Part shown: one piece after another, positions 1,316-35,955 of the stretch
How the letters are laid out: every line of letters starts with the position of its first letter
Position numbering within the stretch: the first letter of the stretch is position 1
Assembly: GCF_036365525.1 (NCBI RefSeq)
Contig: NC_090411.1
Location: forward strand, 36,024,833-36,061,452
Length of the DNA: 36,620 bases
Direction: 5' to 3'
Source: Heterodontus francisci
Taxonomy: Eukaryota
The notes under the pieces: model-generated
Told to the model about the DNA's origin: nothing
Databases searched by the model: none
The model's input: only the letters and a program-made list of their open reading frames with translations
Program-made: the position numbers and the translations under genes

Positions 1316-2084
1316 AAAGATATTTGGTCTCAATTTCCATGGGATTCTCCGGATCTCCTACTGTAACTTCAGTAGAAACCATGGAGAGACAAAGTAAGCA
1401 ACTGCTTTCAACTGTTTTACTAGTTCTCCAGGAGTTCCGTTGATTTCCCACCAGAGAAACCCTGGAAATTCCAAACAATAGGGGGCATCCAAAATAAATT
1501 TGGATTCTGCATTTCCAGAGAGATGGAGGTAGGGGTCTAGAAGGAGGGGTTTCACTGGGAGAGTTGCAGTATTAGAGGGATGTGCTTTGATAGGAGATTT
1601 AGGATACAAAAGGGATGAGTTTCAATGACAAAGCTGGGGAACTAGAGGGACAAGCATCAAGATTTAAGGGACTAAAGTAATGGGTTTAAATGGGAGAGTT
1701 AGAATGGGTTTCACTAGAAGAATCAGGGGACTAGATGAAAGGGCTTGGACAGAAGAGTTAGGGTGCAAGAGGGATGAACTTTCTTGGGAAAGCACAAGTG
1801 ATCTGCTAAATGTGAAGCCATTATTTAGAGAAAAAGCCTTTGGTCTCCACTCCTCCGATGTTTGGAATTGGGATCGAATGCAAAACCTTCAGACTCAGAT
1901 GGAAAGCTACGACTGAACTACGTCATGGATCTATTTTTGGGTTGACAGCTTTTCTGAAGCTGTTGATCAGCTTTTGTTACTTGGCCTGTGTGTTAGGCTG
2001 CTGAAGGAATCAGAATTGACAGCACTTCCTTCTTTTAAATCTGGGAATTAGTATCTCCTGTCAGGGAGAATCTGCAGTAACTGT

Positions 2085-2182
2085 TCTGATGAAGGGTCAC
2101 TGACCTGAAACGTTAACTCTGTTTCTCTCTCCACAGATGCTGCCAGACCTGCTGAGTATTTCCAGCACTTTCTGTTTTTATT
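2085..2182 (+). mobile_element. Short hammerhead-ribozyme element, copy A (intact core)
   Basis: CTGATGA(2086-92)-A-GGGTC act GACCT-GAAA-CGTT-AAC, then the family body cagatgctgccagacctgctgag. 14-bp TSD tctgc[a/t]gtaactgt at 2071-2084 and 2183-2196. Confidence 0.8.
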
Positions 2183-5592: not shown

Positions 5593-5774
5593 ACTATCTG
5601 TGAATTTGAATACTCTCCTGTAAAATGGGAGAGGTGGGTGAAAGAATTTCAATTGGTCCTGTCAATGAGCTGACTCATCTATTATAGTTAAATTGGAATG
5701 TGCATCAGAATGAAAATAAAAGCTGGTAGCTTTAACTGGACACAATTGGGTTAGATAATCATACATTGGATGGG

Positions 5775-5923
5775 GAAGAGAAGCAGAGTTAACGTTTCGG
5801 GTCAGTGACCCGAAACGTTAACTCTGCTTCTCTTTCCACAGATGCTGCCAGACCTGCTGAGTGGTTCCAGCATTTCTTGTTTTTATTTCAGATTTCCAGC
5901 ATCCGCAGTATCTTGCTTTTATT
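5775..5923 (+). mobile_element. Hammerhead element copy B, fold-back 5' end, CUGANGA missing
   Basis: Perfect 29-bp inverted repeat 5776-5834 centred on stem II; TSD atacattgga[t/c]ggg at 5761-5774 and 5924-5937. Confidence 0.8.
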
Positions 5924-6408: not shown

Positions 6409-9400
6409 CTGTAACGACCACAAATGGAAGTCGGGTTACAGACCAGAGCATGTCAAAACCAAGAATCAAAGCAATAATATAAAAAGAAAATAAGATTACT
6501 ACCCAATTTTTACTGGGTCAGATCTTGGCTCAAACCTGTCTATCATACAGCATTGTTTCCTACATTACAACAGTGAGTATACTTCATTGTACTTCATTGA
6601 CTGTGAAGCACTGTGGGACAACCTGAGGTCATGAAAGGTGCTATAGAAATGCAAGTCTTTCTTTTTCTTTTTATTAAAGCTGGGATATTACATTACTGAA
6701 ATTAGTCCACTAAGCAAGTTCTTTGATTTTATCAAAGTCATTAACATATATAAGACTAGAGGATTAAAATCTCCTGAAAAAAATCACATTTACAACTACA
6801 TTGAATTTACAACCATTTGGCCCAACTGCTCCATGTTGGTGTTTCTGCTCCATACAAGCCTCCTCCCACCCCCTCTTCATCTCACCCTGTCAGCATATCC
6901 TCCTATTCCTTTCTCTCTCATGTGTTTATTGAGCTTCCTCTTAAATATATCTACACTATTCACCTCAACCACTCCTTGTGGTAGTGAGTCCATATTCTCA
7001 CCACTCTCTGGGTAAAGAAGTTTCTCCTGAATTCTTCATAGAAGCAAAGGAAATAGGAACAGGAGTAGGTCATTCAGCCCCTCGAGCCTGCTCTGCCATT
7101 CAACTAGATCATGGCTGATCTACCTCAATGTCATTTTCCCACACTATAACCATATCCCTTGATGCCTTTAATATCTAGAAATCTATCAATCACTGTCTTA
7201 AACATAGGCAGTGACTGAGCCTCCACCACCCTTTGGGGTACAGAATTCCAAAGATTCACCACCCTCTGAGTGAAGAAATTCCTCTTCATCTCAGTCCTAA
7301 ATGGCCTACCCCTTATTCTGAAACTGAGTTCCCCGGTTCTAGACTCCTCAACCAGGAGAAACATCCTTCCTGTATCTGCCCTGTCGAGCCCTGTAAGAAT
7401 TTTGTATGTAAGTAGTCGTTTGGTAGTACAGAACATGAATACTGCTGAAAATAGAGACATGTTTTCAAAGTTTTTCATCTTGCACTCATCAGGCAATCGC
7501 AAGAATAACCAATGTAAGGGAAAACAACAACGTATACTGCATGAGAAGAGAGTGCTGATTGGTTGGCAAGTGGACTCTGATTGGTAGAGGTGTTACCATG
7601 GAGAATGCGCCAGTTTACGGTGACTGACAGTTAACTGCCAAGCTTTGTTTGAAATTTAAATCAGGCAGCTTGACTCTGATTGGTCAAGGCATTGTCCTGA
7701 GGAATGAACCAGCAAATGGCTCACTTATTTTGTTCAGCTGAAACAGGCGCAATGTTTGTACATGCTCTTTCTGTCTGCAAAGAATAGGGCCCTGTGTATT
7801 AATATATGTAGCGTCCAGTACGCGCAAATGCACCACACTGCGAGCCCTACTGACAATCATAAATTGGTTGTCAGCACAATTCTTAGTACACTGTAGATTA
7901 CTTAGCAAATGTTGTCCAATCGCGGAATCACATCTAATGTTGCACTGTGTCTTGAGTTTTGCAAGCATGGGCTGGTTGGGTACGGCCCGTACCTTGACCG
8001 TTGCGAACAGCAGAACGGATATGTTGTTTGATACGATCCGCCAGTCTTTGGGACGTACGGCCTATATACCTAGCATCACACTGGCATTGAAATTCATGCA
8101 TCACATTACTCATTTGTGAGATAGGCAGGACTCTTTTTGGCTTGACTGCAGCGTCCATTCAGCAATACACAAATTTTGTATGTTTCAATGAGATCACCTT
8201 TTATTTTTCTAACCTCTAGCGAATACAGGCCCAGTCTCCTCAATCTCTCATAGGACAATACCACCATTTCAGGAATTAGTCTGGTGAACCTTCGTTGCAC
8301 TCCCTCTATGGCAAATATATCCTTCCTTAGGTAAGGAGACCAAAACTGTACACAACACTCCAGGTGCCATCTCACCAAGGCTCCATACAATTGCAGTAAG
8401 ACATCTTTACTCCTGTACTCAAATCCTCTTGCAATAAAGATCAATACACCATTTGCCTTCCTAATTGCTTGCTGCACCTGCATGTTAGCTTTCAGTGACT
8501 CATGAACAAGGACACCCAGGTCCCTTTGGACATCAACACTTACCAATCTCTCACCATCGATCATTGGATTTACTCGTGGCTATCTTATGACGTTTTCCTG
8601 TGATTGCTAACAACTCCACCTCACCTCGAGAGGCTCAGCATGGTTGGTGGCACATGGAGGAATGTGTAGCCCTCTTCTTTCTGAGATTGAGCTGGAGGAA
8701 TACTGTTGGAGCAGAGCTATAGCTATCCAGGGAGAACTTGATGCTGACACTGGGTACCTGAAATGGGAAGAGGTCCATTCCCAGCAATAACTTCCTCTTG
8801 CTAATACAAAAGTAAAATATTGCAAATGCAGGAAATTTGAAATAAAAATAGAAAATGCTGGAAATACTCAGCAGGTGTAGCAGCATCTGTGGAGAGAGAA
8901 ACAGAGTTAATATTTCAGGTTGATGACCTTTCATCAATTTCCCAGTTTAGTATATAAATGACTTGGATCTTGGAACAGAGTAAAATTTCAAAATATGCCG
9001 ATGATACCAAACTTGGAGAAGTGGCAAGCAGTGAGGATGATACCAATTGACTGCGACAGAAAATAGATAAGCTAGCAGAATGTGCAGACAAGTGGCAGAG
9101 GGAATATAATACAGAGAAGTGCGATGTGATGCATTTAGGCAGAAGGGATAGGGAGAGGCAATATAGACTAAGTGGCACAGTTCTAAAGAGTGTGCAGGAA
9201 CAGAGGAACCTGGGGGTGCATGTACATAGATATTTGAAGGTGGCAGAACATGTTGAGAATGGTCAGCAAAGCATATGGGATCTTGGGCTTCATAAATAGA
9301 GACACTGAGTACAGAAGCTGGGAGGTTATGCTGCATTCTTATAAAACTCTGGTTAGGCCACAACTAGAGTACTGCATCCAGTTCTGGTCACCACACTTCA

Positions 9401-12400
9401 GGAGGTGTGCCATCCTGCCATTCACATCATCTAGACACATCATTCATTTCTTTGTTTGTCCCATTACCACTCTTACTGAAACTTTTGTCACTTTAATCAG
9501 TCTTGCCCTCCACCCTATCACAGATCTTCCCTTTTGCTCTTCTTCACTCCTCCTGCTCACTTTCACCTGCTCAAAGCCTATTACGTTTGGAACTTTTCTC
9601 AGTTATGATGAAAGGTCACAGACTTGAAACATTAACTCTGTTTCTCTCTTCACAGATGCTGCCTGACCTGCTGAGTATTTACAGCATTTTCTATTTTTAT
9701 GACACAGATTTAAGGTTTTGGGCAAGAGATACAGGGGTGATGTGAGGAAGAACATTTTTATACACGAGTAGTAATGACCTGGAACTCGCTGCCAACGAGG
9801 GTTTTAAAAGGAAATTGGATGGGACTTTGAAGGAAATAAAGTGTAAAGCTATGGGATAGAGCTGGGCAATGGAACTGACTGAATTGCTCTACAGAGAGCT
9901 GTCGTGGACTTGCTGGGCCAAATGGCCTCCTTCTGTGTAGTCATGACTCTATGACCCATCCTACCCACCACCCTGGTACCTGTGCCACGATGGCCTCAAG
10001 GTCCATGAGCTGGGTTTTCTTCTCCATATTCTCCGTTTCCACATATTCCAGCTTTTCCTTGATATGGGTCATCACCCCAATGGTAAATTCAATTTTCTTC
10101 CGCATTTTTGTGACTTCCTGTAAAATGAACATCAGGTCTGAATACCTGTCATTTTTCTAATATTCCATTAAAAGCAAAGTAAAATATAAAACAATTGTCT
10201 CATAAAGTGACAACTTCAATTTTGAAATCCTGCCTACACCAAAATGTTTCCACACCTCATTTAATTTTACATTCTTCCCACTTTTTCTCCTGCTCTGGAG
10301 AAGATACTGGCTGTCACTGGGGTAGAGCGAGTGACAGAGCACACTTTACCAGCAGCAACATCAGCAACAGGAATGTCAGCTTATTCTTGTCCAGATCAGT
10401 TGTATTGACCTGAGCTGGTCCCAATAGAATTCTGACATCCTTGCATCAAGGTACTTGGTGTGTTTTTGTTTTCTGTTTAGTCTTTAGACACATGGAGTAC
10501 TGTACTGTTGCAGGATTATAGGCAGCAGTTGAAGAAGTTAAATACAATCTATCAATCATTCTAACTTGGTTCCCATGTGGTGTATAAAATCATAGAGTCT
10601 AAATCAGGGCTTGGAAGTTGCCCTGTCCCAGGCCTCAGCCCCACTGGATTTTGGTGGGCCAGGTGGAGACCTGAAATTCTCACATCCTGCCCAATTTCCT
10701 GCCCTTCTGGCCAAAATAGAACTCAGGCCCTCAGGAAATGGTGGGCCCTGAGCTGCTGCATCTCTTTTCCTTGTTAGGAACAGTCTCTACACTAGGCAGT
10801 GCAGTTTAACATTTATTTTACATAGTGAAGTCTGGCATCTGTTGCCAAAAAACGTGGGGTGAAAAAATACACCTTTTATTTTTCCTTCCTGCTTTCCAGG
10901 CTGGGATACAGTTCCACTGGAACTAAGCCTTGGGGTTGGCACCTTTGGGAACAGAGAAAGGAAACAAGGCTAAAAGGAACATTTCACTGTTTGTACAGTA
11001 TCTACATTCTTTTAAAACAGTACATTTGGAAATGCTCCTTTCTGACCTGTTCCCTCTGTCCTTTACTAAAGTGTTAACTCTTGCTGTCTGGCAGCTCCTG
11101 TTTCACGTGTGAACTTTAATAGTGAGCGTGGATGGGCTGATTGATGGTGGGAGGGGAATTCATTCCTGTCCCCACCTGATGTCCGTGAATACATGAGTTG
11201 GAATTTTACGTTGGGCGGGAGGTCCCACCCACGAGCCAAAAAGTCGGTGGTGAGCTTGCTTCTGCAGGCCTGGGGAGCTATGCCAGGATTTTACACCCCC
11301 CCAGGCCCTTAATTGGCCTTGGGCGGGACTTCTGCCCCTTGAGGCAGGAAATCCCGCCTCCAAGAGCTGTTGGCCAATCAGCGGGTTGGCAGCTCTCATT
11401 CCCAGCAGCGCCTCTGGGTGCGGTGACCACTGCTGGGACTGCACCCAGCTTCAGCAACAAGAGGGACGCTGGCCCCGGAAAAAAGGTAAGTTTCTGGGGC
11501 CTTGCCGGGGACAATTGGCCAGGTCTGGACGAGGCAAGGGGGGGTCGGTTTGCGAGGTGGGGTCAGGAGCGTAATGTTGTGTAGTGGGAACGGTTGGGCT
11601 GTGGGGTGGGGGGGAACTTTTTGTGGGCACAGGACACTCGTTCAGGAGGGTTGCCCCCCCCCCAGCTCGCAAGGAGGCAGGCAGGTTTTACTGGGTGGCC
11701 TCCTGTGGGGCCTGAGCCACCTGCCAGCCGCTGATAAAATACCAGCAGCGGTGGGAAGAAGCACTTAAGGGCCTTGATTGGCCTGGAGCGCTGTTTCTCG
11801 CCGCCACTGCCTCTCGTAAAATTGCTGCGGGGTGGCACACCCACCTCCCCACCTCCCACTCAATTGTACAAACCTCCCCCCCATCCCTGCCACCAGCCCG
11901 CTCCTTTGGGGTGGCATAAAGCCATACAGTCCACTAGAATCAATGGACAGTGATTTGAAGTGGGAACTCAGGCTGATTTTTCCCCTCCCCAGTCCAAAGT
12001 TTGAGTTCAGCTGACAATTCAAACTGGGAAACCATTTTTGAGGTCCATATGGCCTGGTGTTACAGTGGGCAGGAAAATGCTCTCATACTCTCTAAGCAGT
12101 TTATTCAACCAAGTTTTTGCAACAGTGGCGCAGTGGTTAGCACCGCAGCCTCACAGCTCCAGCGACCCGGGTTCAATTCTGGGTACTGCCTGTGTGGAGT
12201 TTGCAAGTTCTCCCTGTGTCTGCGTGGGTTTCCTCCGGGTGCTCCGGTTTCCTCCCACAAGCCAAATACTTGCTGGTTGATAGGTTAATTGGCCATTATA
12301 AATTGCCCCTAGTATAGGTAGGTGGTAGGGAAATATAGGGACAGGTGGGGATGTGGTAGGAATATGGAATTAGTGTAGGATTAGTATCAATGGGTGGTTG

Positions 12401-15400: not shown

Positions 15401-18400
15401 GGGGAGTCTTTATTCTGTATCTATCCCATGATGCATTGTCATACCTTGTTATACCACCTAATGAGCAAACGAAAAACATTGAGGCAAAACCCTTCTACTC
15501 TCCGTCTAGGCAGTGTTCAAACTCAGGTTTTTGAGGTTAAGAACCAGTCATCAAATGGCCTACACCACACGTAGCTACTTATAGGAATATGGGAACAGGG
15601 TTGGCCATTCAATCCCTCAAGCCTGTTAGATCATGGTTGATCTGTATCTCAACTCCATCTACCCACCTTGGTTTGGTAACCCTTAATTAACCCACTGAGG
15701 GACACCACTAGTCAGATCCTGTCAACTACTGTACATAACTCTCTGAATCTCTCCTATCCAATTCCATACCCTTGTCAACAGTTTGCCTCCCATTTCATGA
15801 TGCACAGAATGAAACAGTATAAAAGGAGGCTATTTGATCCATCGTGCCTGTGCTGGCTCTTTGAAAGAGATATTTAATTAGCCCAACTCCCCCTGCTCTT
15901 TCCCCATAGCCCTGCAAATGTTTTATTTTCAAGTATTTATCCAATTCTCTTTAGAATGTTATTACTGAATCTGCTCCCACCCCTCCTTTCACACAGTGCA
16001 TTCCAGATCACAACTGACTGCGTAAAAATTGTTCCTTCATGTTGCCATTGGTTCTTTTGCCAATCACCTTCAATCTGTGTCCTCTGGTTACTGACCCTCT
16101 TGCCAACGGAAACAGTTTCTTATTTTCTCTATCAAACCCTACATGATTTTGAACAGCTCTATTAAATTTCTCCCAACACTTCTCTGCTCTAAGGAGAATA
16201 ACACCAGCTTCTTCAAGTAACTGAAATCCCACATCCCTGGTATCATTCTAGTAAATCTCCTCTGCACCTTCTCCAAGGCCTTGATATTCTTAAAGTATGG
16301 TGCTCAAAATTGAACACAATCCTCCAAGTGAGCCCTCAGCAGTGTTTTGTAAAAGTTTTGGAATAACTTCTTTGCTTTTGTAATCTTTACTTGTAGTTAT
16401 AAAGTCAATGATCCCATGTGCTTTTTTAACAGCCTTCTCAACTTGTCCTGCCACTTCAAAGATTTGTATACATATACCGACAGGACTCTTCCTGCAACCC
16501 CTTTAAAATTGTACCATTTTGTTTATATTACCAAAATGAACTCACCCCTTTGGAAACTTAGGAGTGCCAGAAGTAGCCAGCTGCTAACGATCCTCATAGA
16601 GTCATAGAGTTATACAGCACAGAAACAGGCCCTTCGGCCCATCGTGTCCATGCCGGCTATCAAGCACCTATCTATTCTAATCCCATTTTCCAGCACTTGG
16701 CCCGAAGCCTTGTATGATATGTTCCTGGCTGAACATCTCTTTTGTTCAGAAACATCCGTTATTAAAGGTCTTTCTAATAGGGGGTGTGGGATAACTGAAA
16801 GGAGTGTGGTGAATGTTAGGACTGTTAACTTCGGTATAATTCTCTTATGTGGAACCTTATCGAATGCCTTCAGAAAGTCCACATAAATAACATCCTTACC
16901 CATAGTTAATATCTCAAATAACTCAACTAGGCTCTTTGGTTTAATCTTTACTGTCAACATTGGATTTAAGCTCATTCCCAGAGTTGACATGACAATGTTT
17001 CTATATCTCCAGCCCTTTTCACACCCTCATTTTTCCCTTACCCATGAACTTCACGTATCGTTGTTCGTAGTCTGAGTGGGTTTTCTTTAACTCGATATTT
17101 GTTTCCTCTATCTTCTTCTTGCGGTAGTAATCTGCTAGCTTGTTCTGTATTTGGCTGTTATGGTTCTTCAACCTCTGCCGTTCCACAAATAACGCCTGAG
17201 CAACAACAGGAGCAAAAGGATTTCAATCAGCATTCTATTTTATAATAGTAAATCTATCTCCCAACAACCTTTTCTCATTAAATGAGAATTGATAGATCAG
17301 GGATTTACCTTGTTGTTTGACATTGTACAAAAAATTAACAGTTTAAACTAGACTGGACATTGGGTGGTTTTCTTTTCCGAGAGAGTAGTGAGCCTCTGGA
17401 ATACGCTGCCAGCTGGCACACTGGGTGCTGACATTGTCTTCAAGAAGGAGCTGCACCAATTCTTGACTGGGGCAGGAGATAACATCATATGGAACATATG
17501 TCCAACATACAACCCCCGGGCCAGGATCTGGCCTGCCAGAGTTTCCATCTGGCCTGCAGATGTATTTCAGAGATGAGAAATTTTCCATTGTCTTCTTCTT
17601 TCAGATCGCTTTTTAAAACATCACGCTGTCAGTTTCACAGCTGACAGGTGCTGACATCGGGAACAGCAGTTTCCCAACTTCAGACAGCTTTGGGGTTTTC
17701 TGGCAGGTTCCAACTTTTTTTTAAAAGCCCGCTGGAAAAACCCAAAGCTGTCTGAAGTTGGGAAACCGCTGTTCCTGATGACAGCACCTGTCAGCTGCGA
17801 AACTGACAGTGTAAATTTTTTTAAAAACTAACCAACCACAAAGCTGCTGTGCTGAGCGCTCTCACACCCTGCAACTGTTAGAAAGAGAGAGAGAGAGAGA
17901 GAGCGCGGGGGAAGGGGCAGGGGGGGGAGGAGCAGAAAAAGAGAGAGGGGGCAGAGAGAGAGAGAAAGACAGACAGAGGGGGGTAAAAAGAGAGAGAAGG
18001 GGGCAGAGGGTGGGGCAGAGAGAGAATGGGGCAGGGAAAGGGAGAGGGGGCGGGGGGGCAGAGAGAGAGAAAGGGGGACACAGAGAGAGAGACTGGGGGA
18101 CAGAGAGAAAGAGAGAGAGGCGGGACAGACAGAGAGAAGGAGAGACAGAGGGACAGAGAGAAGGGGGGGGCGACAGAGAGAGAAACAGGAGGGACAGAGG
18201 TAGGGATGACACAGAGCGAGGATAACAGAGAGGTGGGGTATCAACAGAGACGGGGGACACGGGGAGAGAGACAGACAGACAGACAGAAAGAGAGAGGACA
18301 GAGAGTGATCTAGATCACGCCCAATAGATGGACATCTATCTGGAATACTCCACATCGCTACTACAAGTGTGCAGGCAAACACTGACTACTGTGCAAGCAA

Positions 18401-21400
18401 AAAAATGCCAGGTAATGCCAACATAGTAATGGGAAAGTAAGTCAATAAATTAATCTTCTCATTTAAAGCTTCTTCATAAAAATGCACATTTATTGTTGTT
18501 TTGATCAATAGTGAGATAAATATTTAGTGCCTTTATGTTTCCGAAATTGTCTCACCAGCTCCCCATGTAAAACAAAAATTGTAATGTACCCCCCCTACAC
18601 GAAAATCTTAGACACCCCTGATATAGAAGGTAAGTATCTTTGTAAATAGCACTTAATCCGCGTGATCTCCTCGACTGGTTTTGATCGGCTGAAGGGATAA
18701 GAGAGGAATTTTACGAATATTTTTCCCTCATTGGCCCTGGAGTTTTTTCTGTTTTTCTTTGCCCCTTTCAGGAGTTTGTGCCCTGGTTGAGAAGTGGGGC
18801 AGAGGAGGAAAGAAGGAGGTATTTAGTCACAATGCCCCAGCCATCATGAGTGTAGGGAAGGCTTGATCATCTTTTCTTACCTGTCCATTTCTTATGGTCT
18901 TCTGTCATTTGAATGTGACAGTAAACCCAGACCTTGTCTGCCCATTCAGGTGGATTTTCAAAATTCTATGGTATTATTCAATGAAGGCAGGAAGTTCTCC
19001 CAACGACTCGGTCAACATCCTTCCCTCAGCCAACATCCAAAAAGAGATTAATTGGTCATTCATCCCATTGTTGTTTACGGAAATTTGCTAGATGCAAGTG
19101 CAGCAACTAATAGTCAATGCACTTCAAAGCAAGTAATTGTATACAAAACACTTCCACATATTTTTGAGAGTTGGGATAAGCTGCTAGATAATGTAAGTCT
19201 TTTTTCTTTATCACATGACACTGAGAATGTTATATACTGGACCTTATAACAGATCAATTTGCCTTACTTCCCTTAGTTTCCCTCTTATAACCTACAAGCT
19301 TTTAGAAACCTAATGAATTGAAAAAAAGAATGGATGAAAAAAGGCTTGCCTTTATAAAGTGCCCTAATGTGATCTCTGAAACATCTCATTGCACTATTGT
19401 AACGTGAGTAAATGTGAAATAAAAGAAAGGATTTTTAAAAATTCATTCATGAGATGTGCCCATCCCTAATTGCCTTTGAGAAGGTGGTGGTGAGCCTCCT
19501 TCTTAAACTGCTGCAGGCCATGTAGTGTAGGTACACCAACAGTGCTGTTAAGCAAGGAGTTCCAGGATTTTGACCCAGCAACAATGAAGGAACAGTGATA
19601 TATTTCCATGTCAGGATGGTGAGTGGCTTGGAGGAGAACTTGCAGGTGGTGTTGTTCCCATTTGTCTACTGCCCTAGTCCTTCTAGGTGGTAGAGGTCGT
19701 GGGTTTGGAAGCTGCTGTCGAAAAAGCCTTGGCAAGTTGCTGCAGTGCATCCTGTAGATGGAACACACTGCTACCACTGTGCATTGGTGGTGTAGGGAGT
19801 GAATATTGAAGGTGGTGGAAGGGATGCCAATCAAGTGGACTGCTTTCTCCTAGATGCTGTCGAGCTTCTTGAGTGTTATTGGATTTGCACTCATCCAGGC
19901 AAGGGGAGAGTATTCCATCACACTCCTGACTTGTGCCTTGCAGACGGTGGACAGGCTTTGGGTATCAGGAGATGGGTTACTCGCTGCAGAATTCCCAGCC
20001 TCTGACCTGCTCTTGTAGCCGCAGTATTTAAATGGCTGGTTCAGTTACATTTCTGGTCAATAGCAACCCCCGGATGATAATAGGGGATTCAATGTGGAGT
20101 AATCAGTTCAGTCATAAACTTATTGAATGGCAGAGCAGGCTCAAGAGGCTGAGTGGCCTACTCCTGCTCCAAATTCGTATGTTTGTATATTCATATTCCG
20201 TGATGGTAATGACATTGAATGTCAAAGGGAGATGGTTAGATTCTCTCTTGTTGGAGATGGCATTGCCTGGCACTTGTGTGGCATAAATGGTACATGCCAC
20301 TTATCAGCCCAAGCCCAAGCCTGAATGTTGTCCAAAACTTACTGCATGTGGGGCACAGACTGCTTCAGTATCTGAGGGGTTGTGAATGGTACTGAATACT
20401 GCAATCATCAGTGAACATCCCCACTTCTAACCTTATGTTGGCAGGAAGGATATTGATGAAGCAGCTGAAGATGGTTGGGCTTAGTACACTACCCTGGGGA
20501 ACTCCTGCAGCAAAATCCTGGGCCTGAGATGATTGGCCTCCAACAACCGCAAGTCCCTTCCTTTGTGCTAGGTATGACTCCAATCAGTGGAGAGGTTTCC
20601 CCCAGATTCCCATTGACTTTATTTTTGCCAGCGCGCCTTGATGCCACACTTGGTTAAATGGGCGGCGTAGTGGTTAGCACCGCAGCCTCACAGCTCCAGC
20701 GACCCGGGTTCAATTCTGGGTACTGCCTGTGTGGAGTTTGCAAGTTCTCCCTGTGTCTGCGTGGGTTTCCTCCGGGTGCTCTGGTTTCCTCCCACAGCCA
20801 AAAGACTTGCAGGTTGATAGGTAAATTGGCCATTATAAATTGCCCCTAGTATAGGTAGGTGGTAGGGGAGTATAGGGACAGGTGAGGATGTGGTAGGAAT
20901 ATGGGATTAGTGTAGGATTAGTATAAATGGGTGGTTAATGGTCGGCACAGACTCGGTGGGCCGAAGGGCCTGTTTCAGTGCTGTATCTCTAAATCTAAAA
21001 AAAAAATCTCAAGTGTCCTTTCAGTGAACTTGGGTAAAAAAAACACATCCATGGAAATAAAATATTAAAAAAGGAAGGACTTTTGTAACAGGTTACAGAT
21101 TGTGGTTGAATACAATTCTGCTGCTGATAAGGGCCCACAGCAACTCATGGATGCCCAGTTTTGAACTGTTGGATCGGCTCCGAATCTTGTATTTTTATAA
21201 CACCTTTCATAACCTCAGGAAGTCCCAATGCTCTTTACAGCCAATGAAGTACTTTTGTAGTGTAGTCACTAATGTAAAAAATGAGGAGCCAATTTGTTCA
21301 CAACAAGATCCTACAACAGGAATAATGATCAGATGATCTGTTTTTAGTTATGTTGATTGTGGGATAAATACTGACTCGGAAACTAAGGGGAACTCCCCTG

Positions 21401-24400
21401 CTCCTCTTCAAAATAGAGCAATGGGATCTTTTACATCCACCTGAGAGGGCAGATGGGGTCTTGGTTTAATGTCTCATCATGTTCTCCTTAGAGTGGAGAA
21501 AGAGATTTGATAGAGGTGATTAAAATCATGAAGGGTCTAGATAGAGTAAATAAAGATAAACTGTTTCCAATGGCAGATGGTACAGATTAAAGGTGATTGT
21601 CAAAAGAACCAGAGGCAACATGAAGAAAACTTTTAGGATTTAGAATGCACTGCCCAACAGGGTGGTGGATATAGATTCAGTAGTAACTTTCAAAAGGGAA
21701 TTAAATAAATACTTAAAGGAAAGAATTGCAATAATATGGGAAAAGTAGGACTAAATGGATTGCTCTTTGAAACAGCTGGTGCAAACTCATTTGGCTGAAT
21801 GGGCTCCTTCTGTGCTGTACTTTTCTATGATTCTATGATCTGAAAGGTGGCACTACTGATCCCTCACTACTGTAATGGAGTGTCAACTTAGATTATGTGC
21901 TCAATTCTCTGGTATGGGTCTTAAACCCACGACTATTTGACTCACAATGAGATGAATGACTAGCTACCCTATAGGAGAGTATAGCAAACAAAAAAGAGGA
22001 GTTAAACTGGAGAATATACTAGTTACATTAACTGTCAGAGTAAGGTACTAGGAGGTATTGTAAAAAATAGAAAAAGAGTCATAAAGGAAGGGATTTACTT
22101 GATATTTGTACTCCAGCTCCAGACGCTCAAGAGATGCTTGTCCATCTTCAACCTCAGCATCTTCATCTCTCTCTTCTACAGTGGGTGTCTCTAGCAGAAG
22201 ATGAAAGATGACATTTAAAATGGTATCTTGGCTGATATGAAAGTTGATCATAATTCTTCTGAATTCTAATATACATTCCTTACAAAAGCATTAGAAACAT
22301 TTATTCTGATTTATAAAATGAAGTCAGACTGTTCTGAAGATCTTCTGCATGCAGCAAGTGTGGACATGCAGGGCACAGGTGAAAAACTTTTAAAGTTCAA
22401 CAAGATGGAAGGATGGATCCTCTTGGTCCTGCAGTTGGCTGCATCGGATTGCATGCACACAGTGACTACACAAGAACTGGTCTGTATGCCTGTAAAGGAG
22501 CCTGCCCAACTTCTGTATGTTAATTTAAATGGATGGAATTTCAGGTGAGCTCCCTCATGAGTGTGTGTTTCTCCCTGCCCAACTTCCAACTTTCATATGT
22601 GCGTTGTACCCAGGAGATGCAGTACACCAGGCGGAGGACTAGAAAAATCCATCCTTGATTTTCGAAAGTCCAATTAGCTGAAATCACTCAATCACTGCTT
22701 CTCCAATGTACAAGGCTGCTGATAGGCATTCGACCTAACTGTTCAGCCAAGAAGCATTTTAATCATTTACTGTGGTAACAGTTCTAAGTTATAATCCGTC
22801 TCTAAATTGATAGTAATAAAAACAAGAAATGCTGGAACCACTCAGCAGGTCTGGCAGCATTTGTGGAAAGAGAAGCAGAGTTAACGTTTCGGGTCAGTTC
22901 TGAAGAAGGGTCACTGACCCGAAACGTTAACTCTGCTTCTCTTTCCACAGATGCTGCCAGACCTGCTGAGTGGTTCCAGCATTTCTTGTTTTTATTACTA
23001 TCAATTTAGAGACGGATTATTTCTTGTTTTTATTTCAGATTTCCAGCATCCGCAGTATTTTGCTTTTATCTAAATTGATAGTGTTTTTTTCTTTCTTTGT
23101 TCCCAAGTTCCATAGTGCCTCTATATCAAAAGTCTATTATTTCTTCCAGGCCCAAGATATTATCCCCCTTTCTCCACACAGCTAAGATAATGTACCTTTC
23201 ATAGTTCATTGCAAGCTGTATCCTCGCTCTTCAACCTAGTGCCACCCAATGATAGTAAGTCTAATTTCCATGACCTTACCATCCAACCCAAATGCAAGTC
23301 TTAACGTTCTATTGGTATAACCTCCCCTGTGCCATCAACTTTGATGCCAAGAATACCTTCTCTCTCCGGTGTCCCAGGTTCTAATGTTGGTAGACCTTTT
23401 GCAAATTCTTCCTTTACAGGACTATCATCATGTGCTAAATCTTCACCAATGATAGTCAGTGGTTCTTCCTTCTCCCCTTCTGAAAAAGTGTTACTAGTGG
23501 GCAAAGGTGATGCAGTCTGCTTCTCCATTTCCTTTGCTTCTTCATCCTGGTTATTGATGGAAAAAGTTGAGTTAGATTAAACAATATAAATAAGACTGAT
23601 GATACACTGAAGTAGTAGCAAGATTGGAATCTGAATCTGAAAGATGTATTTGCAGAATGTAGATTGGAGTAAATGTCGAATCTTCCTCGGTCCAATATGA
23701 TATTAGCCAATGTCCATCTAAAGTACATCCTACATAAAAGCTGACAAACATCCTTTATTACTTAGCATAATATTTATATATGGCACTTCGTAGTAAGCAT
23801 ACTTAAATAACTGCTAGTATTACAGTAATTGTCTTGTTCCCAAGTTTCAGCACTTATGCTTACCTGGGTTTATAACCTTCTCAAGTTTACAGATTAAGAA
23901 CAAAGAACAAAGAAAATTACAGCACAGGAACAGGCCCTTCGGCCCTCCAAGCCTGCGCCGATCCAGATCCTCTATCTAAACATGACACCTATTTTCTAAG
24001 GGTCTGTATCTCTTTACTTCCTGCCCATTCATGTATCTGTCTAGATACATCTTAAAAGACGCTATTGTGCCCACGTCTACCACCTCCGCAGGCAACGCGT
24101 TCCAGGCACCCACCACCCTCTGTGTAAAGAACTTTCCACGCATATCCCCCCTAAACTTTTCCCCTTTCACTTTGAACTCGTGACCCCTAGTAATTGAATC
24201 CCCCACTCTGGGAAAAAGCTTCTTGCTATCGAACCTGTCTACACCTCTCATGATTTTGTACACCTCAATCAGGTCCCCCCTCAACCTCCATCTTTCTAAT
24301 GAAAATAATCCTAATCTACTCAACCTCTCTTCATAGCTAGTGCCCTCCATACCAGGCAACATCCTGGTGAACCTCCTGTGCACCCTCTCCAAAGCATCCA

Positions 24401-27400
24401 CATCCTTTTGGTAATGTGGCGACCAGAACTGCATGCAGTATTCCAAATGTGGCCGAACCAAAGTCCTATACAACTGTAGCATGACCTGCCAACTCTTGTA
24501 CTCAATACCCCGTCCGATGAAGGAAAGCATGCCGTATGCCTTCTTGACCACTCTATTGACCTGTGTTGCCACCTTCAGGGAACAATGGACCTGAACACCC
24601 AAATCTCTCTGTACATCAATTTTCCCCAGGACTTTTCCATTTACTGTATAGTTCACTCTTGAATTGGATCTTCCAAAATGCATCACCTCGCATTTGCCCT
24701 GATTGAACTCCATCTGCCATTTCTCTGCCCAACTCTCCAGTCTATCTATATTCTGCTGTATTCTCTGACAGTCCCCTTCACTATCTGCTACTCCACCAAT
24801 CTTAGTGTCGTCTGCAAACTTGCTAATCAGACCACTGATACTTTCCTCCAAATCATTTATGTATATCACAGGGCTCAGTCAAACCCAAGATATACATTTG
24901 CTCCTCTGATGGCTTATTGTGTAAATGTATCACCCAGTGTGATACTGGGATGCATAGATCAGAAAGGTACCAGATTTGAGCCCCAGCCTGTTCAGAAGCT
25001 GCTAGTCTCAGCTGGATCTTTGGTTAGGGCACTACAATTGACTTAAGCACAAAGATTAATGAGAGAGAAAAACTACCCAAGTTTCCTACTCCTGATTCCT
25101 ACTAGAAAATGTGTATGATGGATGGAACAAAATTGAGCTTGACTAGTTCTGATGAAAGGTCGCTGACCTGAAACGCTAACTCTGCTTCTCTCTCCACAGA
25201 TGCTGCCAGACCTGCTGAGTATCTCCAGAAGTTACTGTTTTCATTTGAGCTTGACTATGATAGTTCTGCAGCCACATAGCCTGTCAGCTACACAACACAT
25301 GAAACTAGTTGGATAATGTATTAAAAGGCTGGTGATGCCTGTAGCATCATACTTCAGCAAAAGAATGTGCGTCAGGAAAGAAGCAAACCAAGGGGAGAAT
25401 AATTTTTAAAAAGGCAAACACTAGATAACAAACTTCAATATCATGGTACATTGACATTCAGTCCTGTGCCCATCTAACTGTAAACTTCTACTTCCAGCAT
25501 TGATTTTCAGAGTTTACATATTGATGGAACCCATTGTCCAATTTGTTTATGCAGCATTTCCAGGGCATTAAACATTAGGTTTTATTCGTACAGCAGTGTA
25601 TATCCAGACAATGTTGCACACTCTAGCTAATGAGATGGATTGTTACCAGTGGGTTTGTGTTGGTTAGGTGGGTTCTCAAATGGAAAAGTTCAATGATCAA
25701 CTGCTTGTTCATTGGTAACCGAGACCAATAATAGCTTGAATATATTAACTATATTCAAAAGCATTAGTTTACAGGTTTCAGACAAATAGACAGAATCATG
25801 CAACAGGATCTCCCAAAGCACCAGTAAAAATCCTGGAATCTCATATAATCAGACAAAGATTGACGCTGAGCCAAACAAGGCAACATCAGTTGGGGAGACT
25901 AAATGCTTGGTCAAAAAGGTAGATTTTAAAAAGCATTTTAAAGGAGGAGAGAGATAGAAAGGCAGAGAAGTTTAGGAAGGTAGTTGTAGAGCTTAAGACA
26001 CATCCACCAATGGTTGACTGAAGAAAGTGGAGCATGCATTAGGGGCCAGAGTCGGAGACCTAGCAGGGTTGTAGACCTGGAGAAGATTACAGAGATAGAA
26101 AGGGGTGAGGCCATGGAGGGATGTGAACATAGGGTGAGAATATTAAATATTGAGGCCTTGCTGGGATAGGAACATGTGGATCGGTTATCACTGAGTTGAT
26201 GGTTGAGCAGGATTTGGTGCAAGTTAGGATACAGGCAGCAGAGTTTTGGATGTTTATGGAGGGTGGGAGGCAAGCCAGGAGCGCACTGGAATAGTAGAGT
26301 CTGGAGGTAATAAAAGTGAAAGCAGTTCTGATGAAAGGTCATCGACCTTAAGCGTTAACTCTGTTTCTCTCTCCACAGATGCTGCCAGACCTGATGAGTG
26401 TTTGCAGCATTTTCTGTTTTAATTTATAACAAATATGTGGATGATGATTTCACCAGGAGAGAGGCTGAGACAGGCGATATTATGGAGGTGGAAGTAGGTA
26501 GGAAGTAGAGAGAATATGGGGTCAGAAGCACAGGTCAGGGCCAAATGGATTCCCGAGGTTGCGAACAGTCTGGTTCAGCTAGAGCTAGCAGCTGGGGAGG
26601 GGAATAGAATTTGTGGCAGGTGCTGAAGATAATGACTTTGGTCTTCCCAACCTTTAATTGGAGGGAATTTCAGGTCACACGGGAGTGGATATCGGACAAG
26701 CAGTCTGAAAGCACGAAATCTGTAGAGCATAACTTGTAGAAGTTTGGGAAGTAGAGATGGTTGGAACAAGCTGAGGAGCTGGGAGATACATAGAGAGCTA
26801 CTGCTGGCAGGAGGGTGTAATTACAATGTGACAAGCATACATAGGCAGTTTCCATTATAAATGTGGACATAAGAATTTGTATATAGATTATATATTCTTT
26901 TTAATCACTATTTGATCTTTTGTAAAAACAGAGGCAGATACTCACAGCAATCTTTTCTACAGTCATGTTCGGTTCAACCGGTTTTTCTCCTTCAGAATTA
27001 AAAGACTCAGTTAATATGTTTATTAGTAAAATCAAGCCCAAACACATGGATAATAAAACTGGATTGTGGAGAATTTATCCATTCAATATTATATCTTATT
27101 CTCCTTCATTCCTCATAATCCCTGTGCTCTCTATCTCCTCTCCGCAATGTGACAAAATTGAAATCAAGGCTCACCATTCTGCCCCCTACTTTAACATCTT
27201 TCCCTGCATCTCACTTAATCTTTCCTCCCCCCCCCCCCCCCCCCCCACAAGCTACATGCCTTAGATTCCCGAGGTTAGAAGATTCAAGCCTTGCTATCTT
27301 TTAATCATAGCTTTGTCTTTTCTCCAACTTTTTCAATCTTGTTGCTGTCCTACATTATGGACCCTAGCCCTTCACCCCAGTCTGTTAACTTAAAAAGGTG

Positions 27401-30400
27401 GTTTATCTGAATTCAAATAACCAGCTTTCCTTTTGTAGAGAAAACCAAGATGTGGCAAAAATATGTATTTTTTTAAACTTCCTGTCCTTTTTCTTCCTCC
27501 AAGCTATCCAATACATATCTTCTTCAAGATGATTCCTTCACATCTAATCATTATTACTACTCTGGAATCAGTCTGCTTTATAGAAGACCACCAATAGCAT
27601 CCAAGTGGAAAAGATAAACAATGTCAATACTTCTACTTCTTTAACACCAATATCATGCTGGTGCTTATTTGACAGACAAGCTAGGAATTGAAAACTCTCC
27701 AACAGGAGGCAATGCACTCAGCCACTTGAGTTACTGTGCTGCCTTGGGTAGCTAGGTTTCTGAAGGCTCTCTTAGTCTTTTATTCATACACACAAACATA
27801 CCTACGTTGCTACTTATTTCACTTTGTTCCTTTAATATTTCCTCTGGCACTTCATCACTTTTATGTTCCTGAATTTCTTGGGTAGCTCCATCACTGTCAG
27901 GAGGTAGATTTACTTCCTTCCCCTCATCACGGACCACGCTTTTCTCTTGTGCAGCTTCTTTCCCAACTTCAGGTTGTTCTTTCTCTTTTTCTGCTGTTTC
28001 TTCAGTGATCTCTGCAACTAGAAAGAGAAATAAAACAATTACATCCTTTCCAGAGGAACTGAAAGGCACCAGGATGAGGGATCAGAATTATTCATGGCTG
28101 AATACATCTTTACTGGTTTGAAAACACAGTGTAGCTCAAGAATTGCTCCATGACTAGTGTCAATGCCTCTACCTGTCCAGAATCAGGCAGGATAATTAGT
28201 CCTACCACTACTCCATCACTCCCACATCACCCCTCCTCCAAACTCCATTTGCCATACACTTCACTTCAGCCTTTAGTATTCCATCTAGTAATCTGCAGAA
28301 ACAAAACTATCTAAATGGATCCAAGGAAGTTGATGAAGTGTCAAGTGACTGTCACAAATTTGAACCCACGACTTTTGTTTTTGAGTTGGGTGGCTGACTA
28401 TGTGAATAATGATGGTTCCACCTCTCCCTGAGTCTTTGAGATTGTTTATTACTCACACCCATTCAAATGCATATTTCTTTCTTTCACCTTGTTCCTGTGC
28501 TGCTTTTTCAATCTCTTTTTGCTCCAAAGTGGGGACAGTGGCAGGTGCCTGGACTGGCGGAGCTCCTGCAACCCCATCTTCCTCAGCCCAATCTTCCTCT
28601 TCATCTTCTTCAATAAAGGTGTCTGAGATGAGAAAAAAGAAATACTGCAGTTCGCATCCTTTCATACTGAGGTTTAAAGCAAACATTCCAAGATGGCATC
28701 AATCAGGAAATGCCTTTTAATAAACGGAGTTACTACGTTACATACTACCTTACCGATTTCATGCTCGATGGAAAGAATTTACATTTATATAACACCTTTC
28801 ACAACCTCATGCCATCCCAAAGCACTTCACAGCAAATGAATTACTTTTGAAGTGTAGTAATGTGAGGATACTTTCAGGTACATAAACTGAGAACTGTACA
28901 CAGTTATACAGTTCTGCAGTTTTTGTGGAATTACTCATTAACTGGAACAGGATCATTCCTTCCTGGAGAGCCAGGGTAGCTGGATTGGAGGAGAGAACTT
29001 ATTTATCTGAAACAGTATATTATAGCTGTGAGAACTGAGGGGACAGAAGATTGTGGGTGCAGGCCTATTACGTATAATCTAGGTTGAGACTTTAGTTAAC
29101 GAATGCTGCATTGTTGAAGGTGCTGTATCTGGAATGCAATAAACTGAGGTCCTGTCTGCCTGCTCAGATGTAAAGGATTCAACAGCACGATATGAAGAAC
29201 AGGAGTTCTTCTATTGTCCTGGTTAACATACCTCCCTTAATAATCATCATCTAATCTTAATTATTAGTGATTAATTTTCTGTTTGTTGACTCTTGCTATG
29301 CATGCATTGGCTGTAATGTTGCCTACATTCCAACAGTGACTGCACTTTCAAAAATAATCAATTGGTTATAAAGAGCTTTGGGATATTGTGAAGGTGTGAC
29401 ATAAATACAAGTTCTTCCTTTAGAACTATAGAACCATAGAAAAATCACGGCACAAGTGGAGGTCATTCAGCCCATCATATCCGTGCCAGCCAAAAAATCT
29501 AGCCGCCCAATCTAATCCCACCTTGCAGCACCTGGTCCATAGCCTTGCAGGTTACAGCACTTCAGGTGCATGTCCAGGTACCTTTTAAATGAGTTCAGGG
29601 TTTCTGCCTCCACCACCGTTTCTGGCAGTGAATTCCAGACACCCACCACCCTCTGGGTGAAAAAGTTTGTCCTCATGTCCCCTCTACTCCTTCTACCAAT
29701 CACCTTAAATCTGTTCCCCCTGATAACTGACTTCTCCGCTAGGGGGAACAGGTCCTTCCTGTCTACTCTATCTAGGCCCCTCATAATTTTGTACACCTCA
29801 AGGAAAACAACCCTAGCCTATCCAATCTTTCCTCAAAGCTGCTACTTTCAAGCCCTGGCTCTGTACTCTCTCCAGAGCTTTCTCGGGAGCTGTCTGTATG
29901 GTGGATGATTTGGTTTCCCTACTGAAATTAGAATTTTTTGGGAGGATGATAAGTTGTGGGAGGCAGAAGTTAGCCGTAACTGCTGGTAGTTTTCTGACTC
30001 CAGATACGGCCTGTACATTATTTGCTCTGACTGGCAAATGTTCTAAATGGTTCAGTGGTGACAGTGCCACAAAGTAGTTGGATAAGCCTTTATCCTCTTG
30101 TTTCCAAATGTAGAGGCATTATCATAGTCCTTCTTTTCTATCATATTTTCACAAGTATTTATGAACAATGAGTTCATAAAACTGTAAACTTAAACTAGTC
30201 CCACAACAAAGAAATATGAATACCACAGCACCAAGAGATCAGAGTAGCCAGTTCTAATCAAAGCTCACAAATTCATCAGCATGGAAATAGGGACAGTGCT
30301 TCCACAGGAACGTAGGACCAGGAAGTAGGCCACTCAGCCCAGTCGAGCCTGCCCCACCATTCAATATGATCATGGCTGATCATCCACTTCAATCCCTTTT

Positions 30401-33400
30401 TCCCACGCTATCCTCATATTTCCTTATGTCATTGGCATTTAGAAATCTGTCAGTCTCTGCTTTAAACATACGCAACAACTGAGCTTCCACAGCCCTCTGG
30501 GGTAGAGAATTCCAAAGATTCACAACCCTCTGAGTAAAGAAATTTCTACTCATCTCAGTCCTAAGTGGCTTCCCCCTTAATTTGAAATTGTGTCCCCTGG
30601 TTCTAGACTCCTCAACCTGGGGAAACATCTTAGCTGCATCTACCCTGTCTATCCCTTTAAGTATTTTGTAGGTTTCAATGAGATCACCTCTCATTCTTTG
30701 AAACTCTAGGGAATACAGGCCCAGTTTCCCCAATCTCTCTTCATAGGATAGTTCCGCCATCTCGGGAACAAGTCTGGTGAACCTTCGTTGCACTCCCTCT
30801 ATGGCAATAATATCCTTCCAAAGATAAGGGGACCAAAACTGCACACAGTACCCCAAGTGCGGTCTGACCAAGGTTCTATACAATTGAAGCAAGACTTCAC
30901 TACTCCTGTACTCAAATCCACTTGTGATAAAGGCTGACATACCATTAGCCTTCCCAATTGCTTACTGCACCTGCATGTTAGCTTTCAGTGACTTATTGAC
31001 AAGGACACCCAGGTCCCTTTGTACATCTACACTTTCTAATCTCTTACCATTTAAGAAATACTCTGCACATCTGTTCCTCCTACCAAAGTGGATAACCTCA
31101 CATTTTTCCATATTATATTTCATCTGCCACATTCTTGCCCACTCACTAAGTCTGTCCAAATCCCCTTGAAGCCACTTTGCATCTTCCTCACAACACACAT
31201 TCCCACCTAGTTTTGTGTCATCCGCGAACTTGGAAATACTACATTTGGTCCCCACATCCAAATCATTGATATATATTGTGAACAGCTGGGACCAAAGCAC
31301 TGATCCCTGTGGTACCCCACTAGTCACAGTCTGTCAATGCGAGAATGACCCCTTTATTCCTACTTTCTGCTTTCAGCCTGTTAACCAATCCTTAATCCAT
31401 GCTAGTATATTACCTCCTATCCCATGTGCTTTAGTTTTGCTAACCAACCTCCTGTGGGGGACTTTATCAAAGGCCTTTTGAAAATCCAAGTTTACCACAT
31501 CCACCGACTCCCCTTTATCGATTCTGTTAGTAACATCCTCAAAAAACTCCAATGGGTTCGTCAATCAAGATTTCCCATTCATAAATCCATGCTGACTCTG
31601 CCCAATCAGATCATTATTCTCTGGCCTATGAAAACTACTAATGTAGTCGGAACTTTGAAAATAGTTTTGCTCTCCACTGACGCGTTACATAGATATTGTC
31701 AACTTGGCTCACTTCAGAACACTCGCTGTCTGAGTCATCAAACTATGGTTTAAGCTTTACTGCAGAATTGGAGCATTAATTTCTGTCTGAGACTGTAGTG
31801 CAATGCTGAGAGATTAGTCCATTGTGTAAGGTGCTATGCTTCAAATGAGAAATTCTTTTCAGGTGGATGTTAAAAATCTCTTGCCACCTCTTGAAGAATA
31901 GGGAGCTCATTGCCAACTTTCTGCTTCCAACTGCTACCAGTGAACTCCACAGGACGTTACGGCATCATTGGCTGTGTGAATGAGATTGTGATCTAGTTTT
32001 ATTTTATGCACCTTTAAGTTTAACAGGACTGTTTTCAGAAGTACCTTACTACCCGGATTAAGGATGCACTTGAACGTGCTGTTTCTGTCCCAGTGGGTGA
32101 CCCAGTGCCACCCTTTCTGCTCCAATTAAAATAGTCCCAATCAATGCCATGAAAGCAGAATAATTGATCATTTATCTTCTTGCTGTTGTTGCCTAGTTAA
32201 CACCAGTGACTGCGCTCCAAAGCAATTGGCTGTCTCTGAAGTGTATTTGGGTGCCCCTGGGAGCTGTGATAAACCATTAGCTCAATGCAGATTGTTTCTC
32301 CTGGTGCACAGAAAATTCCATGAAAGGAATCTTGTTGAAATAACTTCTCACATTTAGGAATTGACTTTTATGTGGAGCAGGAATGGGGTAAATTAGGACC
32401 ATCAGCGGTTAGTTGGCTGACTGGCATTTGAGCACACCTATTGCTATTAGTATAATAAAAGCAAAATACTGCGGATGCTGGAAATCTGAAATAAAAACAA
32501 GAAATGCTGGAAATACTCAGCAGGTCTGGCAGCATCTGTGGAGAGAGAAGCAGAATTAACGTTTCAGGTCAGTGACCCTTCTTCAGAACGGTATTAGTAG
32601 TTCACTAAGTATTGACTCATTGCTTTATGTTGCACAGTGCTTTGTGTGGTCAGGAATGGCATATTCTGCTCAATCAATTGAACACACGCCTTTCCTTTGA
32701 GCAATAGTGGCGTGACAGGCACTAACACCCCAAACTACCCTATCGTCCTAGATGTTGCCAGGACTGGAAAAATGCAGCTATGAGGAAAGATTGGATAGGC
32801 TGGGGTTGTTCTCCTTGGAACAGAGAGGCTGAGAGGAGATCTGATTAAAATGTACAATATTTTGAGAGGCCTGGATAGAGTGGAGGTGAAGGGTCTATTC
32901 ACCTTAGCAGAGAGGTCAGTGATGAGGGTGCATAGATTTAAAATTAGAGGGGAAATGAGAAAAAACTTTTTCACCCAGAGGGTGGTGGGGGTCTGAAACT
33001 CACTGCCTGAAAGGGTACTGAAGGCAGAAACCCTCAAGTCATTCAAAAGGAGTCTGGATATGCACCTCAAATGCTGTTAGCTGCAGGGCTACGGACCAAA
33101 TGCTGGAAGGTGGGATTAGAATAGGTGGATCGTTTTTCGAGCGGCACAGACACGATGGGCCAAGTGGCCTCTTTCTGTGCTTTAAACTTTCTATGATTCT
33201 AGGCTTGTAGAGATGGACAACAGGGCAATCGCCGACCAAAGTAAAAAGTGCTGCCTCTCTTTAAAGGTACCAGGGTAAGATTCTGGTGGGTTTCTTTTTA
33301 ACTTTGCATTCTTTATAAAGTTGTTAGCTTGTTGCAATTGTTTCCTCAAATGAATATGAACAGGATTTTCTAAAAGGACCATAAATGGTATCGAAAGGAC

Positions 33401-35700: not shown

Positions 35701-35955
35701 TGAAATAAAAACAGAAAGTGCTGGAAATACTCAGCAGGTCTGGCAGCATCTGTGCAGAGAGAAGCAGAGTTAACATTTCAGGTCAGTGACCTTTCATCAG
35801 AACTGGCAAAGGTTAGAAAGAAATTAGGTTTTAAGCATGGGGGTGGGGGCAGCTGGTGGGAAGAGAACAAAAGGAGTGTGATAGGACAGAGGGCAGGAGA
35901 GATTAAATAACAAAGCTGTCATGGGACAAAGGCAAAGAGCGTGTTAATGCTCGTG
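35701..35955 (-). mobile_element. Hammerhead element copy I, 5'-extended
   Basis: Reverse strand AGTT-CTGATGA-A-AGGTC act GACCT-GAAA-TGTT-AACT preceded by the leader shared with copy D. Confidence 0.8.

Follow-up and report, generated by a model that had tools for sequence, protein, structure and literature searches.

Probable stepwise change of a minimal hammerhead motif, including a U4C core, within one Penelope-like element lineage of Heterodontus francisci

The window, the whole 36,620-nt stretch of Heterodontus francisci DNA analysed here, contains nine copies of a repeat, lettered A to I by position, of which copy E almost certainly carries, within the pseudo-LTR (pLTR) of a high-copy Penelope-like element (PLE), a minimal type I hammerhead motif. 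The explanation that best accounts for the evidence as a whole, with a probability of roughly 0.7, is that the variants of this motif are successive stages of one source lineage, that the likely youngest stage has a core predicted to be weakened by C at position 4, that the element inserts by copying uncut RNA, and that the motif is kept mainly as the folded 5' end of that RNA.

The hammerhead motif and its copies in the window

The coordinates of the motif, the repeat copies and other features of the window are collected in Table 1. The copy E motif is built in the format of PLE minimal hammerheads (min-HHRs), whose stems I and II span 3-7 bp and which carry GAAANNUH; it has a stem II of 5 bp, a stem I of 4 bp and the palindromic 15.2-16.2 present in GAAACGUU. 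A hammerhead descriptor gave 29 matches in 1.24 Mb of sampled genome, all of them in this Penelope family, and 0 in the reversed control, so the copy E motif is not a chance occurrence. The same descriptor scan of 1.24 Mb detected no other hammerhead family; the hammerhead copies in this sample are either scattered or associated with fragments of PLE ORFs, and no hammerhead-bearing tandem array, the mark of a non-LTR retrozyme, is present in the window. An Rfam scan returned no match to the hammerhead family at E<=1, and its miRNA matches were rejected as generic hairpin models scoring below the gathering scores on fold-back copies. Two other assignments were also rejected: an alternative stem II register with the extra A pairing to U11.1, in which by inspection a G would face an A, and a start codon within the core, as in the anole element, where the AUG of CUGAUGA reaches a stop at the fifth codon in loop-ACU copies. 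The ORF of the element starts downstream of the core, not inside it.

The variation described in the earlier note, which was made from the letters of the window, is confirmed: the first stem II pair changes between copies among G-C, A-U and G·U (Table 1), the stem II loops are ACU, GCU, AUC and ACA, position 7 is U or A, and an extra A follows A9 in 8 of the 8 copies that retain the 5' core. The copies read as short 5'-truncated pLTR insertions. Copy E lies in a compound insertion, in which the junction of the arms falls at the 5' edge of the motif and in the stem II loop; its arrangement would record fold-back synthesis entering the target DNA and the use of both 3' start sites. Elsewhere in the window, an exon-like frame with a Pfam match adjoins a masked stretch, and the window likely sits within a CCDC113/CCDC96-type ciliary gene. 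It also contains LINE 3'-end fragments, which we take to be CR1-like, a MITE-like inverted repeat and a tandem repeat.

Table 1. Features of the window (positions are those of the whole stretch)
Feature	Position	Strand	Repeat start	Description
Copy A	2081..2182	+	2081	G·U first pair, U4, U7
Copy B	5773..5922	.	5799	fold-back centred on stem II, G-C, without 5' core, with tail
Copy C	8841..8936	-	8841	A-U, loop AUC, decayed
Copy D	9600..9701	+	9600	A-U, loop ACA, decayed
Copy E, minimal type I hammerhead motif	22896..22932	+	22895	by sequence, matches the min-HHR consensus (PMC4209133 Fig S3)
Copy E, stem I strands	22896-22899 with 22929-22932	+		4 bp
Copy E, core C3-A9	22900-22906	+		CUGAAGA, A at position 7
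Copy E, core position 4	22901	+		U here, probably C in its source lineage
Copy E, extra A after A9	22907	+
Copy E, stem II	22908-22912 with 22916-22920	+		GGGUC/GACCC, 5 bp, loop ACU
Copy E, GAAA	22921-22924	+		then CG-U-U, then second stem I strand
Copy E, predicted cut	between 22928 and 22929	+		GUU triplet
Copy E, compound insertion	22786-23082			inverted arm, sense copy, inverted 23-nt flank copy, tail, 13-bp duplication
Copy E, inverted (fold-back) arm	22815..22898	-		without 5' core
pLTR body downstream of copy E motif	22933..22996	+		young-lineage markers; constrained as much as the motif
Inverted 23-nt copy of left flank	22997-23019			between copy E body and tail
Copy E, 3' 'tail' of element	23019..23069	+		tail concept from PMC11167929
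Copy E, target-site-duplication-like repeat	22802..22814 and 23070-23082	+		13 bp
Copy F	25144..25245	+	25144	A-U, loop GCU
Copy G	26323..26424	+	26323	A-U, loop AUC, GAAA decayed
Copy H	32455..32591	-	32490	G·U, U4, A7, with tail
Copy I	35704..35805	-	35704	A-U, loop ACU
Exon-like frame	12463-12726	-		Pfam PF13870 (CCDC113/CCDC96 coiled coil), E=2.9e-16
Tandem repeat	15139-15427			69-nt unit, 4.2 copies
MITE-like inverted repeat	17610-17825			98-nt arms, 86% complementary, 20-nt spacer; a GA-rich simple repeat follows
LINE 3'-end fragments	4337-4909, 7118-8579, 19492-20069, 23976-24878, 30382-31040			one with a weak RVT_1 match

The carrier element

The carrier is represented by locus L016, elsewhere in the genome, which contains an intact 916-aa ORF (RT plus GIY-YIG) flanked by two direct pLTRs, with one inverted pLTR lying upstream. 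All three pLTRs carry the C4 motif, and the ATG lies ~170 nt downstream of the motif start. The protein contains the motifs DKG and RYIDD, a CX4CxxC linker (residue 782) and a VVY-CxxC-LYIG endonuclease motif (residue 819). Its Pfam scan gave RVT_1 at E=1e-5, below the curated cut-off, and no GIY-YIG match; its homologues carry RVT_1, PF26215 and, in some cases, GIY-YIG, the best named one being a bamboo shark protein (71% identity). The locus fits the PLE layout of partial tandem pLTRs, an inverted 5' copy and an optional tail, and by the features given in PMC8557442 the carrier is assigned to the EN+ Penelope-like elements of Neptune/Nematis type.

The three pLTRs of this locus (at 3082, 6388 and 6750) share a further stem II change, a third pair G·U in which pairing is kept, which is either a sub-lineage variant or a change that arose before the L016 insertion. 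A long tandem repeat at 137-2452 of the locus opens several reading frames (with units such as PSESQHLQEL) and is likely a minisatellite. A contig of run X10 on L016:2990-3500 has a loose end with a related motif, with GUC for GUU, in a fold-back arrangement.

Stem II states and their order

The occurrence of the stem II variants genome-wide was counted by exact pattern matches on both strands, all pattern controls giving 0. A G-C first pair was found in about 35,000 matches, G·U in 11,362, A-U with U4 in 4,925 and A·C in 259, and the extra nucleotide is present in 51,679 and absent in 85 matches. Such counts favour young copies. In a random sample of 1.24 Mb, 34 of 108 matches were dropped because they do not span the core, and the remaining 74 comprise 30 G-C, 30 A-U, 13 G·U and 1 U·U; since G-C and A-U are equal there, the exact counts overstate the young class. 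For G·U, the mirror CpG product G12A has 1,350 exact matches, about 8-fold fewer. Up to about 1,600 of the 11,362 G·U copies have C4; C4 with U11.1, with either first base, occurs in 1,646 copies, near the mirror count, and therefore about 9,800 G·U copies represent a true source state. In the sample, A at G5 is absent from both the A-U (n=23) and the G·U (n=13) copies, and A at G12 is seen in 1/23 and 0/13. A-U, G·U and G-C are source states, not the products of independent decay.

These states are probably successive stages of one source lineage, leading from A-U through G·U to G-C. A midpoint-rooted tree, built without an outgroup from 46 long pLTRs of which 44 are distinct (L008 and L132 are one locus with identical rows), forms a ladder of A-U/U7, G·U/U7, G·U/A7 and G-C, in which the C4/G-C clade has the shortest tips and a support of 95/99. 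At downstream sites that are not variable, decay amounts to 67/1084 (6.2%) in A-U, 28/564 (5.0%) in G·U and 11/912 (1.2%) in G-C copies. The order is likely rather than proven because of the midpoint root, the interleaving of A-U and G·U copies in the middle clades, and per-copy age tests that are not significant (p=0.21 for A-U older than G·U, and p=0.054 for G·U older than G-C).

The U4C substitution in the G-C wave

At core position 4, the G-C wave has C: the C4/G-C form (CCGA) has 33,075 exact copies genome-wide, compared to 2,058 of U4/G-C (CUGA), counted with a pattern three bases shorter, and 1,352 of its CpG mirror (CCAA), and C4 is present in 25 of the 30 sampled G-C copies. The surplus of the U4/G-C form over its mirror thus amounts to no more than about 700, out of about 52,000 exact matches. 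It accounts for 4 of the 74 sampled copies, among which only L085 lacks the young-lineage markers. The core description in the earlier note is correct for copy E but overlooked the C4 of the wave to which it belongs. The canonical U4 of copy E is itself probably a product of CpG deamination of C4 after insertion, because the two decay products are equally frequent in its sub-lineage context (870 TG vs 820 CA in exact 53-nt matches, binomial p=0.23). The two arms of a single insertion, L008, differ at this position, with C4 on one side and U4 on the opposite one. Copies of the A-U and G·U stages have the CUGANGA core, as does copy E, there probably through decay, whereas the G-C source lineage departs from it; the closing pair G10.1-C11.1 is G-C in the young stage only, and A-U or G·U earlier.

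With a C4 reference, contigs from the runs of two organisms were mostly C4, with U4 contributing 7.8% and 9.7% of depth, and with a U4/A-U reference no C4 row was found among the contigs. These shares are reference-biased, and all that is retained from them is that a second organism also has C4.

U4C is predicted to weaken the self-cleavage of the G-C wave. The substitution considerably lowers activity in vitro while allowing viroid infectivity (PMC3088659, citing Ambros and Flores 1998), and a complete mutational scan found low activity for single CUGA changes (PMC9901934). When 70-nt segments are folded in silico, the core of C4 copies escapes a competing helix (stem I probability of 0.57, vs 0.04-0.08 for U4/G-C copies), but once upstream sequence is included C4 promotes a different competing hairpin (stem II 0.09); these predictions shifted with flank length and were not taken as support.

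5' ends and a proposed insertion mechanism

The 5' ends of 34 of 106 sampled copies lie within -5..+4 of the first base of the motif, and 0.81 per nt are found over the next 26 nt. At the predicted cut site there is no excess, with 6 ends in the surrounding 7 nt (0.86 per nt vs the background of 0.81) and none at the two flanking bases, the ends having been taken from local alignments and being fuzzy by a few bases. The 5' pLTR of L016 likewise starts a few bases ahead of the motif, and 3' alignment ends fall into two groups. Among the 108 matches are 13 tight head-to-head pairs (L013, L019, L021, L031, L046, L065, L076, L142, L162, L171 and L172, and window 5773-5922 and 22815-22996), with most junctions falling within the hammerhead or at its 5' edge, suggesting that the cDNA folds back at the motif. 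The young lineage has GUCAGU immediately 5' of the core, which can pair with the stem II ACUGAC to give a possible self-priming site.

In the proposed mechanism, transcription would start at the 5' edge of the motif, and the template would be uncut RNA beginning there. Reverse transcription would begin at two sites, ~100 and ~150 nt downstream, and traverse the uncut motif, while the RNA may fold in a dimer-type arrangement via the palindrome AACGUU. The motif would be retained mainly as the folded 5' end of the element RNA, with low, likely dimeric, protein-assisted cleavage. Insertion itself probably has no need of cleavage, which may be useful at another step (mRNA or later) that leaves no genomic 5' ends.

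Constraint on the motif and alternative readings

Constraint was assessed by comparing the oldest group (9 rows) with the youngest (15 rows). Changes are found at 3/33 structured hammerhead positions and at 53/197 upstream pLTR positions (p=0.018), at 2/4 free hammerhead positions (p=0.08 vs structured), and at 7/61 positions in the 67 nt downstream (p=1.0 vs hammerhead). Selection on the RNA region is supported; it covers the whole ~105-nt segment and is apparently purifying, and because the whole segment is constrained it is not assignable to catalysis. The source-level changes in 22933-22996 and its homologues apparently lie mostly in the loop portions of two small hairpins predicted there, which suggests RNA structure beyond the motif, near the 3' start sites.

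Covariation was examined in 44 gap-free copies, obtained by collapsing the 74 core-spanning matches to 56 through removal of same-insertion neighbours, leaving out 13 rows with gaps or insertions, and restoring copy G. In this alignment 93% of the cells pair, but a both-sided change is confined to one pair of the 9; in 500 shuffles, one such pair is reached 122 times, and the observed number of further pair types 479 times. The covariation thus consists of one compensated pair reached through wobble, and is weak evidence taken alone.

The earlier note had proposed that several source subfamilies were under selection for the fold, and concluded that the ribozyme matters for mobilisation. The first proposal holds as far as source-level states and constraint are concerned, with the several subfamilies replaced by what look like stages of one lineage. 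The second is not sustained, and the data lean the other way: only one pair is compensated, the downstream sequence is as constrained as the motif, the cut site shows no excess of 5' ends, the largest and likely youngest wave swapped the conserved U4 for C, and in the anole element insertion in vitro survives hammerhead-dead mutations (PMC11167929). A reading that would preserve it, and that must be considered tentative, is that cleavage is needed in the life cycle, the catalytic fold being selected and U4C tolerated through sufficient residual or protein-rescued activity. Consistent with this, the oldest and youngest groups agree at 10/11 core positions, at 8/8 positions of stem I, in the extra A and in both palindrome and cleavage triplet, while they differ at two of the four free positions; both stem II changes also keep pairing, for which, given two stem II substitutions, the chance is 0.03-0.19 (0.006-0.03 for a full swap at one pair). 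The viroid infectivity possible with U4C (PMC3088659) and the higher core accessibility predicted for C4 in the 70-nt folds also agree with it. However, the difference between free and constrained positions reaches p=0.08 only, the equal downstream constraint and the lack of a 5'-end excess at the cut weigh here too, and anole hammerhead mutants insert normally in vitro, with RNA-seq showing no cut ends (PMC11167929).

A more doubtful alternative is that of a tuned-down ribozyme, in which selection keeps cleavage low but non-zero and a fully canonical U4/G-C source is short-lived, every successful stage having one sub-optimal feature (A-U or G·U with U4, or G-C with C4). It draws on the small surplus of U4/G-C over its CpG mirror and on the scarcity of U4/G-C in the sample, where L085 alone is free of young-lineage markers. 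G10.1-C11.1 is, moreover, the conserved pair of the class (PMC4209133). Against it, there is one lineage with two or three substitutions, which drift or hitchhiking with protein changes would explain equally. The reading also supposes that an A-U closing pair slows hammerhead cleavage, for which the literature search gave no kinetic value. A corresponding scenario, improbable to a similar degree, is that the largest recent expansion of a vertebrate Penelope lineage (>33,000 copies, with intact ORFs) followed damage to U4 that came just after restoration of G-C, low activity having been selected and the uncut RNA serving as both message and template.

Independent post-insertion decay, with G·U derived from G-C by CpG deamination, was named in the earlier note as what would undo its argument and is very improbable for the main states: C11.1-G12 and C4-G5 are CpG sites, and about 1,350-1,650 copies per strand are CpG decay products, the U4 of copy E likely among them, but G·U stands far above its mirror product, and the states travel with linked up- and downstream markers and form supported clades.

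Implications for the function of PLE hammerheads

PLE hammerheads have low activity in vitro, and one element inserts without it. The family described here provides natural variants, likely time-ordered and each amplified to thousands of copies, including U4C. If the C4 form is nearly inactive, a highly successful element can do without cleavage, and the motif would serve as a structural 5' end; if it is active, a protein-assisted dimer would depend less on U4 than standard ribozymes do. Should the tuned-down reading be true, the series A-U/U4, G·U/U4, G-C/U4 and G-C/C4 would test what PLE hammerheads are for, and searches with CUGA-fixed descriptors would have overlooked the commonest form. 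Genome scans should also allow for CpG decay, which can make a non-canonical source core look like a textbook one, as is likely at copy E.

Comparison with known systems

A limited literature search, with subscription journals mostly outside its scope, found no report of a U4C Penelope hammerhead or of a shark PLE hammerhead. No cartilaginous fish was found in supplement file 2 of PMC4209133, and no mention of the catalytic core in the accessible text of a 2026 retrozyme preprint that includes one cartilaginous fish. The PLE min-HHRs reported by Cervera and De la Pena (2014; PMC4209133) resemble the motif described here in their pLTR position, the nucleotide between 9 and 10.1, the 15.2-16.2 palindrome replacing helix III, a short stem I, the GUU triplet (common in Fig S3) and covarying families, including A-U and G·U first pairs in some of those listed. 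The 9/10.1 nucleotide, the covariation-rich families, the G10.1-C11.1 pair (over 80% consensus) and the palindrome are presented there as hallmarks, so that the extra nucleotide and covariation are already-published features of the class. By contrast, the Fig S3 representatives (56 according to the legend) are all U4, and the variation reported runs across families, whereas here it follows a stepwise path within one lineage. The descriptor of that study is fixed on cuganga, and therefore would miss the C4 wave. The features in the earlier note were thus known already, and the new part is the U4C source lineage together with the ordered natural series.

The carrier shares with the Neptune and Nematis EN+ PLEs (Craig et al. 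2021, PMC8557442) an RT followed by a C-terminal GIY-YIG with internal CxxC, a CX2-5CxxC linker, partial tandem pLTRs, an inverted 5' copy and an optional tail; its assignment to the Neptune/Nematis type is by protein and layout features. The anole Poseidon element PAc (Frangieh et al. 2024, PMC11167929) belongs to another clade and also has a pLTR hammerhead and two 3' ends, which give the tail. Its ORF starts at stem II, unlike that of the present element. In PAc the template is uncut RNA, as proposed here; its hammerhead cleavage requires the protein, RNA ends at the cut were not seen, and catalytic mutants leave insertion in vitro unaffected.

Among other hammerheads, compensatory changes at 10.1/11.1 are known in a cricket satellite (PMC2837043). 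The plus-strand hammerhead of CChMVd also has an extra A in its core, which moderately lowers the rate and is kept for a role other than cleavage (PMC3376415), but this viroid hammerhead has a complete helix III and contacts between its loops. The same natural core substitution, U4C, is known from a viroid hammerhead variant (Ambros and Flores 1998, via PMC3088659), whereas in the present retroelement it marks the source from which >33,000 genomic copies derive.
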